Part shown: piece by piece, positions 10,521-11,060 of the stretch
How positions within the stretch are numbered: the stretch's first letter is position 1
Layout: each line of letters starts with the position of its first letter
NCBI RefSeq assembly: GCF_056712565.1
Contig: NZ_CM160072.1
Reading direction: 5' to 3' (one strand)
Length of the DNA stretch: 64,000 nt
Made by a program: the position numbers and the translations under genes
The notes under the pieces: generated by a model
What the model was told of the DNA's origin: nothing
Seen by the model: the letters and a program-made list of their open reading frames with translations, nothing else
Database searches by the model: none

Positions 10521-11060
10521 CAATAATGCCGGAGGTTAATGTTAATGAATCACTGGCGTAGTTAACTGGACGTCCATTTGTTTGCTATGAATAGCAATTA
10601 ATGTTGGCACAACTATTCATATGGTTGATGTGATTTCGGTTTTTATATTAAATATCAATTTAATATAATCTGAAAATAAAACATCTTTTCGCATGTAGAG
10701 AAACATGTCGATATGATAGCGCAGTGCAGATCATGTTATCAGGGCTGGGCGGTAGCGTATTTAATCAGGGAAAGATTACGTAACACTGCTTTTTTGTACT
10801 GGACGATTCTCATTTTATGTTTAAAAATTGAGATACTCCTTATTTCCTGAAACTGTTTTTCATTGCTTATACATGATCAAATACTCCTTACATAATTAAG
10901 GAGAACAAAATGAAACTTAATACACGCCAACAATTTGTATTACTTAAATAGACCAGTGAAGGTACGTATCAGAATATCCGGTGAAGTGATTAATATTTCG
11001 TTGAATATTTCTCCGGATTTTTGAAACCTGCTGCTGTAGAAATTCTGAACAGGAGGAATT

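Follow-up and report, generated by a model that had tools for sequence, protein, structure and literature searches.

Some insertion sequences shield their transposase genes from outside transcription by sequestering the ribosome-binding site in read-through transcripts, a device known from IS10 and IS50 as fold-back inhibition. The RhsE/ydcC locus is a usual place of another kind of element, the H-repeats. For the leader under study here, the closest described counterpart is that of c1882 in CFT073, a 285-nt gene followed by tssI, for which an ops variant has been listed at -313 (Hustmyer et al. 2022, PMC9765446). The operon to which it belongs, c1882-c1889, is silent in the wild type in an H-NS-dependent manner; in an hns stpA double mutant, RfaH ChIP-seq signal extends over the operon and a sigma-70 ChIP peak appears upstream of c1882, with the transcription start site not mapped (PMC9765446). 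The same study found that a long distance between ops and the start codon, about 600 nt in hly, weakens RfaH-dependent elongation (PMC9765446). Our search of the literature for expression of c1882, c1883, c1887 or c1888 returned nothing beyond that paper.

We analysed a 64,000-nt stretch of DNA (contig NZ_CM160072.1, assembly GCF_056712565.1; hereafter the window), which is 100% identical to Escherichia coli chromosomes of the ATCC 11775, NU14 and FDAARGOS_536 type. The RefSeq gene order is ansP, yncG (frameshifted), the feature region, PAAR, vgrG, an M35 peptidase gene, a hypothetical gene, an ISAs1 fragment, yddH and nhoA, which in K-12 terms is the RhsE/ydcC locus. The PAAR protein matches chain D of PDB entry 4JIW (E = 3e-58). 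Upstream of its gene lies an intergenic region of 540 nt (10521-11060, 33.5% GC), in which a first-pass annotation had pointed out a duplicated 10-mer, an AAGGAG motif and a 13-codon open reading frame (ORF), all of which are present in the sequence. The features referred to below are the following.

10642-10669, candidate promoter TTTATA-16-TATAAT, 10/12 (consensus scan)
10688-10717, plus strand, candidate sigma-70 promoter TTCGCA-18-TATGAT, 9/12 (consensus scan; weak)
10722-10759, plus strand, JUMPstart-like element ending in ops (Rfam RF01707, 19.8 bits, below the gathering score of 35)
10748-10759, plus strand, ops site GGCGGTAGCGTA, predicted RfaH loading site, on the non-template strand (11/12 consensus positions)
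10766-10920, plus strand, truncated left end of ISEc1/H-repeat (ISAs1 family), IS positions 1-155 (nucleotide alignment)
10833-10842, plus strand, 10-mer copy 1, ATACTCCTTA, IS positions 68-77
10881-10890, plus strand, 10-mer copy 2, the same sequence, whose CTCCTTA (10884-10890) is the anti-Shine-Dalgarno (anti-SD) arm
10884-10903, plus strand, SD hairpin of the IS: CUCCUUA, loop CAUAAU, UAAGGAG (7 bp, predicted -8.0 kcal/mol)
10910-10951, plus strand, tiny ORF MKLNTRQQFVLLK*, 13 codons and stop, ATG at 10910
10921-11060, plus strand, part of the leader outside the IS, with a long imperfect hairpin followed by the PAAR ribosome-binding site
11061-11345, plus strand, PAAR gene, first of the operon (RefSeq annotation)
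11364-13769, plus strand, vgrG (tssI), then the M35 peptidase effector and hypothetical protein genes
15385-15627, plus strand, second ISEc1 debris, in direct orientation at the far end of the module (BLAST of the 1291-bp IS against the window)

The ops site, whose 12-mer consensus core is GGCGGTAGnnTG, starts 313 nt upstream of the PAAR ATG, and 6 nt separate its end from the insertion sequence's left repeat; after ops, the leader thus consists of these 6 nt, 155 nt of IS debris and a further 140 nt up to PAAR. Both conserved JUMPstart blocks match (CAGUGCA-[18]-GGGCGGUAGCGUA), and the sub-threshold JUMPstart hit was the only one in Rfam scans of 9500-12000 and 10600-11100. Within the 64 kb, GGCGGTAGCGT occurs a single time, and the other six GGCGGTAG octamers all stand without the ops extension. 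The ops variant listed for c1882 is identical, its spacing is also -313, and the CFT073 leader is 99.3% identical to ours over 10921-11060. Since the ops sequence and its distance are those of the RfaH-bound c1882 leader, the tiny ORF lies in the transcribed leader of the operon. The earlier proposal of a leader peptide or regulatory element for PAAR-vgrG therefore stands as far as a transcribed leader is concerned, but not as a dedicated leader peptide, which is excluded by the IS origin described below. In K-12, a JUMPstart-like block is kept upstream of rhsE with no IS remnant behind it. If transcription began from the candidate promoter at 10688-10717, the leader would start about 25 nt before ops; the consensus scan that yielded it returned five sites, compared with 3.2 +/- 1.9 in shuffled sequence.

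Across 5426 complete E. coli genomes, the megablast matches to 10600-11060 were bimodal. The whole query was recovered from 686 genomes, while 5340 of the 5426 had matches to 10764-10920 only, at 85-92% identity and with a median of four per genome. Every one of these shorter matches sits under the annotation 'ISAs1-like element ISEc1 family transposase' (ydcC, ybfD and similar). The segment outside the IS, 10921-11060, is confined to 687 of the 5426 genomes, and about 686 genomes have the junction between the two parts fixed, at one and the same locus. Over 157 nt, the window is 91.7% identical to the left end of an ISEc1 copy of 1291 bp in strain OV24 (L002:2503-3793; BLAST, E = 2e-60), and the coding sequence of that copy's transposase, ydcC, begins at the ATG aligned to the window's. 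The match there takes in 146 nt upstream of the ydcC coding sequence together with its first 11 nt.

The terminal repeat supports the same identification. ISAs1-family terminal inverted repeats follow the pattern CAGGG[A/C]AAGATYRCG..., and the window has a left inverted repeat (IRL), CAGGGAAAGATTACGTAAC, at 10766-10784. The 1291-bp copy has CAGGGAAAGATCACGTAAC on its left and the matching reverse complement on its right; the window IRL also aligns with the reverse complement of the right repeat, CAGGGCAAGATTACG, and with the left repeats of distant ISAs1 members, which read CAGGGCAAGATCRCGAACG. Collinearity with the IS runs from the left repeat (10766) through ATG-(G/A)AA-CTT-AA (10920) and then breaks: an intact IS continues with AAAAATTGATGGAAC... 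(MELKKLMEH...), whereas the window continues with TACACGCC... The block thus holds the IRL, the 5' UTR, the transposase ribosome-binding site and the start codon with 8 further nt, that is, the first 11 nt of the transposase gene, and amounts to 12% of the full element. No intact DDE transposase gene, right inverted repeat or target-site duplication was found at the 10766-10920 junction, and RefSeq carries no annotation for the remnant in the window. Judged by these alignments, 10766-10920 is the decapitated left end of an ISEc1/H-repeat, an immobile remnant and not an element.

A second piece of ISEc1 debris closes the far end of the module. It joins a left-end remnant (IS positions ~1-66 at 15398-15462, 81% identity) to an internal fragment (IS positions 621-783 at 15466-15627), and RefSeq annotates a partial ISAs1 transposase there. 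An ancestor with the intact IS at the exact position of the window was searched for and not found. In CRE287, which has a second PAAR module, the right-hand part of the IS (IS positions 548-1291) is followed by 215 nt of unrelated sequence and then by that module; the flanks of its right repeat do not match those of the left repeat in the window.

The identity of the block accounts for the translation start that had been noted in front of the tiny ORF. AAGGAG lies at 10898-10903, as reported, with a spacer to the ATG of 6 nt (AACAAA) and not 7. In 2000 dinucleotide-preserving shuffles of 10521-11060, the arrangement AAGGAG-N5-9-ATG arose on the plus strand in 21 (1%), a rarity that fits a genuine, now former, translation start. 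By homology, the SD and ATG are the transposase's own translation start, and the tail of the ORF is what follows the junction up to the first in-frame stop. Because IS homology ends at 10920, the ORF is a chimera: its first 3.7 codons (10910-10920) come from the transposase start (MELK...) and the other nine or so from DNA unrelated to the IS. It contains no regulatory codon run, begins 162 nt downstream of the start of ops and ends 109 nt before PAAR.

The duplicated 10-mer had been taken as a possible element of the operon, with copies about 45 bp apart. The repeat is real and the distance is 48 bp from start to start, but both copies lie within the 5' UTR of the ISEc1 left end and are not specific to the operon. 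Of the 2000 shuffles, 503 (25%) contained an exact direct repeat of 10 nt or longer, so the duplication is no more than chance would provide. Copy 2 is unchanged in three further E. coli copies of ISEc1 type (OV24, A28 and O157) and in four same-locus sequences. At the position of copy 1, OV24 and A28 read ATATTCCTCA, the O157 copy reads ATATTCCTTA, as does DG351-2, which has the same junction as the window, and a distant IS copy reads ACGTTCCTTT; intact IS copies match copy 1 at 8-9 of 10 positions only. As copy 1 differs in other IS copies, the exact duplication is specific to a lineage and arose through two transitions: on this comparison, copy 1 is a chance near-copy that was turned exact in the lineage of the window. 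On the minus strand, the reverse complement of the 10-mer (TAAGGAGTAT) stands before a 4-codon ORF only, and a 'terminator' called on that strand turned out to be the SD hairpin again, its T-run being poor; both candidates were dropped.

Copy 2 has a partner of another kind. Its CTCCTTA pairs perfectly with TAAGGAG (10897-10903) over a 6-nt loop, and in the modelled leader RNA (10724-10990) all bases of the SD are predicted to pair with copy 2, at probabilities of 0.99-1.00, and none with copy 1. To place this hairpin in its family, we folded the -45 to +6 region of ISAs1 elements whose transposases are 36-52% identical to YdcC, each as a single sequence, which makes the comparison a qualitative one. 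Equivalent SD stems built of different pairs were predicted in elements at 41-52% transposase identity, in four of the five distant members examined: ACUCCC/GGGAGU in a Photobacterium element, UACUUCC/GGGAGUA in a Cronobacter element, UCCCU/AGGGA in an element of Vibrio scophthalmi and GCUCCU/AGGAGU in ISKpn31 of Klebsiella. The stem was ambiguous in the single-sequence fold of a Salinivibrio element, and the corresponding fold of ISKpn9 (-45 to +6) showed no SD stem of that kind. In pNJS001-2, a more distant H-repeat copy from an O-antigen cluster, the pairing shrinks to 4 bp (CCUU/AAGG) and lies outside the minimum free energy (MFE) fold. A conserved GATC precedes each of the four SD stems, a TATACT-like tract precedes the hairpin across ISAs1 elements, and an ATACTCC-type tract is kept in distant members. 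When seven ISAs1 5' UTRs were aligned with MAFFT, the 3' arms were misaligned, and RNAalifold gave no consensus structure.

The stems extend to different sides of a CUCC/GGAG core, and this pattern in the predicted folds points to selection for pairing. By analogy with IS10 and IS50, we infer that in this family the hairpin would serve to hide the ribosome-binding site of the transposase gene in RNA that reads through from outside. Our searches met no description of an SD-masking hairpin in the ISAs1 family, and among the papers searched none was relevant to regulation of H-repeats or ISEc1. Such a hairpin beside GATC, possibly family-wide, is a modest by-product of this analysis and of specialist interest.

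We then compared the leader with related loci. At the same locus, ATCC 25922, DG351-2, N47, RM12761 and JSWP006 share 94-97% identity with the window over leader and PAAR, and the junction is identical in ATCC 25922, DG351-2 and N47, which were aligned base by base. In the same-locus sequences aligned, the tiny ORF stays in frame over the junction and is intact, with one non-synonymous change (K2E), and the SD and ATG are intact in all four of the four examined; since these sequences differ from the window by no more than about 4-6% over 10500-11345, this intactness says little either way. The first-pass annotation had looked to conservation of the ORF and the repeat in related loci, and there is none upstream of PAAR either in the paralogous leader of CRE287 or in six other genera. 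In CRE287, homology to the window starts only at 10918, AAGGAG and the 10-mer are both absent from the leader, and the short ORF reads MKEEWGITRQQFVLLK*, its 5' part being unrelated to the window ORF. PAAR orthologues at 85-89% identity were found in Citrobacter, Kluyvera, Atlantibacter, Superficieibacter, Buttiauxella and Pseudocitrobacter, all of which are without upstream homology beyond about 11052-11070, without a comparable ORF and without the motif. Because a short ORF with the same nine C-terminal residues recurs in the IS-free version of the segment in CRE287, a small gene ending in TRQQFVLLK* may exist here. The C-termini encoded by the gene before PAAR in Kluyvera and Atlantibacter (...EFVPIT* and ...KVVLVR*) are suggestive of this tail but too short to score, and alignment of the DNA gave no convincing homology.

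Taken together, it is highly likely that the feature is an inert fossil of IS insertion and truncation in an RfaH leader, with its own hairpin masking the SD in read-through RNA, and that control of the operon resides in H-NS silencing and ops/RfaH. The leader of the PAAR-vgrG island next to yncG would once have carried an ISEc1/H-repeat element, 6 nt downstream of ops. A rearrangement, presumably later, would have removed everything past IS position 155 and left the transposase start (ATG-G/AAA-CTT-AA) abutting unrelated DNA, with the junction 140 nt before PAAR. In transcripts that arrive from upstream through ops, the hairpin would be expected to mask the SD in vivo, and the operon would be governed by H-NS silencing and by RfaH loading at ops, if occupancy is as published for CFT073. 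Since the hairpin is predicted to mask its SD, the tiny ORF is probably poorly translated and without a function of its own.

Several other readings were weighed against an inert fossil. Pure chance in AT-rich DNA, which had been offered as an alternative, can be invoked for no more than the exactness of copy 1, given the frequency of such repeats in shuffled sequence and the lineage-specific nature of this one. For the SD, the ATG and copy 2 it is refuted, as their 155-bp block, ~92% identical to a known IS end, is inherited and not random, and as the SD and ATG pair is rare in the shuffles; as an account of the whole feature, chance has next to no probability. It is very unlikely that the remnant donated a promoter, in which case the transposase promoter in its 5' UTR would drive PAAR-vgrG independently of ops and RfaH. 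A promoter-like TATACA-17-CATAAT (9/12) does lie inside the remnant at 10868-10896, and the GATC and TATACT-like tract shared by ISAs1 elements could be read in the same sense, but promoter-like sites are no commoner here than in shuffles, a transcript from the 10868-10896 site would start inside the SD, and the CFT073 locus is silent in the wild type. Moreover, transcription must pass through ops, upstream of the remnant, to yield the RfaH signal that the hns stpA mutant shows over the operon.

The remaining alternatives give the tiny ORF a role in expression of the operon. With its short ORF and SD ahead of a hairpin and a U-run, the 5' leader recalls the trpL, pheL and ivbL attenuators, and translation of the ORF could in principle govern the hairpin and U-run at 10969-11024 and hence read-through into PAAR. 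The imperfect hairpin (10969-11024), with its CCGGA arm and then U5 (11018-11022), starts 17 nt past the ORF stop; its surroundings are predicted to fold stably (-25.3 kcal/mol for 10955-11035; z = -3.6 for the 216 nt of 10860-11075), and in these folds it looks like a terminator. In contrast to those attenuators, the window ORF lacks a regulatory codon run and conservation, and its 5' part was imported with the IS. Neither the MFE nor the centroid folds show an alternative, antiterminator pairing that would involve the ORF and compete with the hairpin; a ribosome that stops at 10951 would scarcely touch the hairpin base; and in the CCGG/CCGG stem the only variant observed, that of DG351-2, is uncompensated. 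With the arrangement missing in other genera, and accidental in so far as the SD and the 5' half of the ORF came with the IS, attenuation is highly improbable. Somewhat different is the notion that the IS-derived ribosome-binding site and ORF were exapted as an early ribosome-loading site in the 313-nt RfaH leader, where coupling of a ribosome to the RfaH-modified RNA polymerase, ~150 nt past ops, would shield the AT-rich leader from Rho and H-NS until the polymerase arrives at PAAR. This has in its favour that the ORF offers the first strong SD and ATG after ops, that the leader is RfaH-bound in CFT073, that long ops-to-start distances weaken RfaH-dependent elongation, as in hly (PMC9765446), and that SD, ATG and frame are intact in four same-locus sequences. 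Those sequences, however, are too alike to reveal selection, folding of the read-through transcript predicts ~99% pairing of the SD, and coupling would be lost before the terminator-like hairpin, as the stop precedes PAAR by 109 nt; in addition, the ORF is missing from the paralogous leader and from other genera, and RfaH is believed to bring in ribosomes with no need of an SD. We regard exaptation as quite improbable. A slim chance is also all that we would give to a domesticated fragment, in which ribosome entry, gated by the anti-SD hairpin of the IS, would determine the share of RfaH-modified transcription that gets past the 313-nt AT-rich leader and the terminator-like hairpin to PAAR-vgrG. 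Were it true, IS debris would have rewired transcription-translation coupling in a horizontally acquired type VI secretion (T6SS) island.

The preferred reading, an inert fossil, makes the value of this analysis one of correction: what seemed to be a leader peptide with a perfect SD is the start of a decapitated transposase gene. The trap is a common one near Rhs/vgrG islands, which abound in H-repeat debris. An unannotated IS fragment makes up about half of the 313-nt leader that runs from a published ops to a structurally characterised PAAR of the c1882 type. Neither component is new in itself, and the tiny ORF is no new leader peptide: ISEc1/H-repeat fragments around Rhs/vgrG islands and ops/RfaH control of the locus are already known.

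Set beside the described systems, the leader resembles the JUMPstart/ops leaders of rfaQ, rfb/wzx, kps and hly, as well as that of c1882-c1889, in having GGCGGTAGCGTA on the non-template strand of the 5' leader and CAGUGCA at JUMPstart spacing. It differs from them in a score under the Rfam gathering threshold and in that half of it is IS debris; ops stands 40-71 nt from the first gene in the rfa, wzx and kps leaders, compared with 313 nt here, and the leader is far longer than theirs because about half of it is the IS fragment. That fragment has the same IRL, 5' UTR, SD hairpin and start codon as the ISEc1/H-repeat elements of E. coli Rhs loci (ydcC, ybfD and yhhI in K-12), and it lies at the RhsE/ydcC locus. 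Its hairpin is like the IS10 and IS50 protection in that the ISAs1 SD forms the 3' arm, with the 5' arm just upstream and a GATC adjoining, and the arrangement recurs family-wide with changed pairs; it differs in that a TATACT-like tract overlapping the 5' arm is only suggestive of a native transposase transcript that would start inside or after that arm and so leave read-through RNA alone masked, and in that the masking in ISAs1 is predicted from folds.

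The regulatory element proper of this intergenic region is predicted to be a JUMPstart-like element with an ops site, and not the 13-codon ORF that the first-pass annotation had put forward as a possible leader peptide or regulatory element for the PAAR-vgrG operon. The features considered here, in window coordinates, are as follows.

9920-10520, yncG (glutathione S-transferase family), as two ORFs, 9920-10096 and 10110-10520
10722-10759, JUMPstart-like element; ops site within it, GGCGGTAGCGTA, at 10748-10759
10969-11024, long imperfect hairpin (approximately -25 kcal/mol), with CCGGA then U5 at its end
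15385-15627, second ISEc1 remnant in direct orientation, its left end (IS positions ~1-66) joined to an internal fragment (621-783)

The ops site lies 6 nt upstream of the IS remnant and 313 nt upstream of PAAR. The predicted hairpin, downstream of the tiny ORF and upstream of the PAAR ribosome-binding site, resembles an intrinsic terminator within the RfaH leader; the sole variant in its stem, found in E. coli DG351-2, is uncompensated.

Further upstream, yncG is annotated by RefSeq as a frameshifted pseudogene in the window's lineage, and is intact in DG351-2, RM12761, and K-12. As an ISEc1 left end is also found in the second remnant, the PAAR-vgrG-M35 module has an H-repeat left end on both sides. 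E. coli CRE287 carries a second PAAR-vgrG module in tandem (locus L093, 20170-21272), upstream of which lies an ISAs1 element's right-hand part, up to and including the right inverted repeat, followed by 215 nt and then by the same 140-nt segment that precedes PAAR in the window. The short ORF of this module, MKEEWGITRQQFVLLK*, has only its last 9 codons in common with the tiny ORF.

We also compared the region from -45 to +6 of the transposase start in ISAs1-family elements from Photobacterium, Cronobacter, Vibrio, Salinivibrio, and Klebsiella (L094-L098). After a conserved GATC comes a tract of ATACTCC type, which pairs with the Shine-Dalgarno (SD) sequence; the flanking pairs differ from lineage to lineage. 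A predicted SD-masking hairpin may be family-wide, perhaps combined, by analogy with IS10, with Dam control; our literature search turned up no description of such a hairpin in the ISAs1 family.

In E. coli N47, the leader is 30 nt longer through expansion of the pentanucleotide GTGCA to ~8 tandem copies (L005 ~3118-3150, equivalent to window ~10720-10729, where there are 2). The expanded tract falls in the JUMPstart-like element's 5' block, downstream of the candidate promoter and upstream of ops.

In Pseudocitrobacter faecalis (L015 ~2900-2912), the ops-like TGCGGTAGCGTG lies ~95 nt upstream of PAAR in an otherwise unrelated upstream region, a hint that orphan PAAR-vgrG islands of further genera, too, may be controlled by RfaH. 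The c1882 leader of CFT073 is RfaH-bound and H-NS-silenced, and the window ops matches the ops of that leader in sequence and spacing (PMC9765446).
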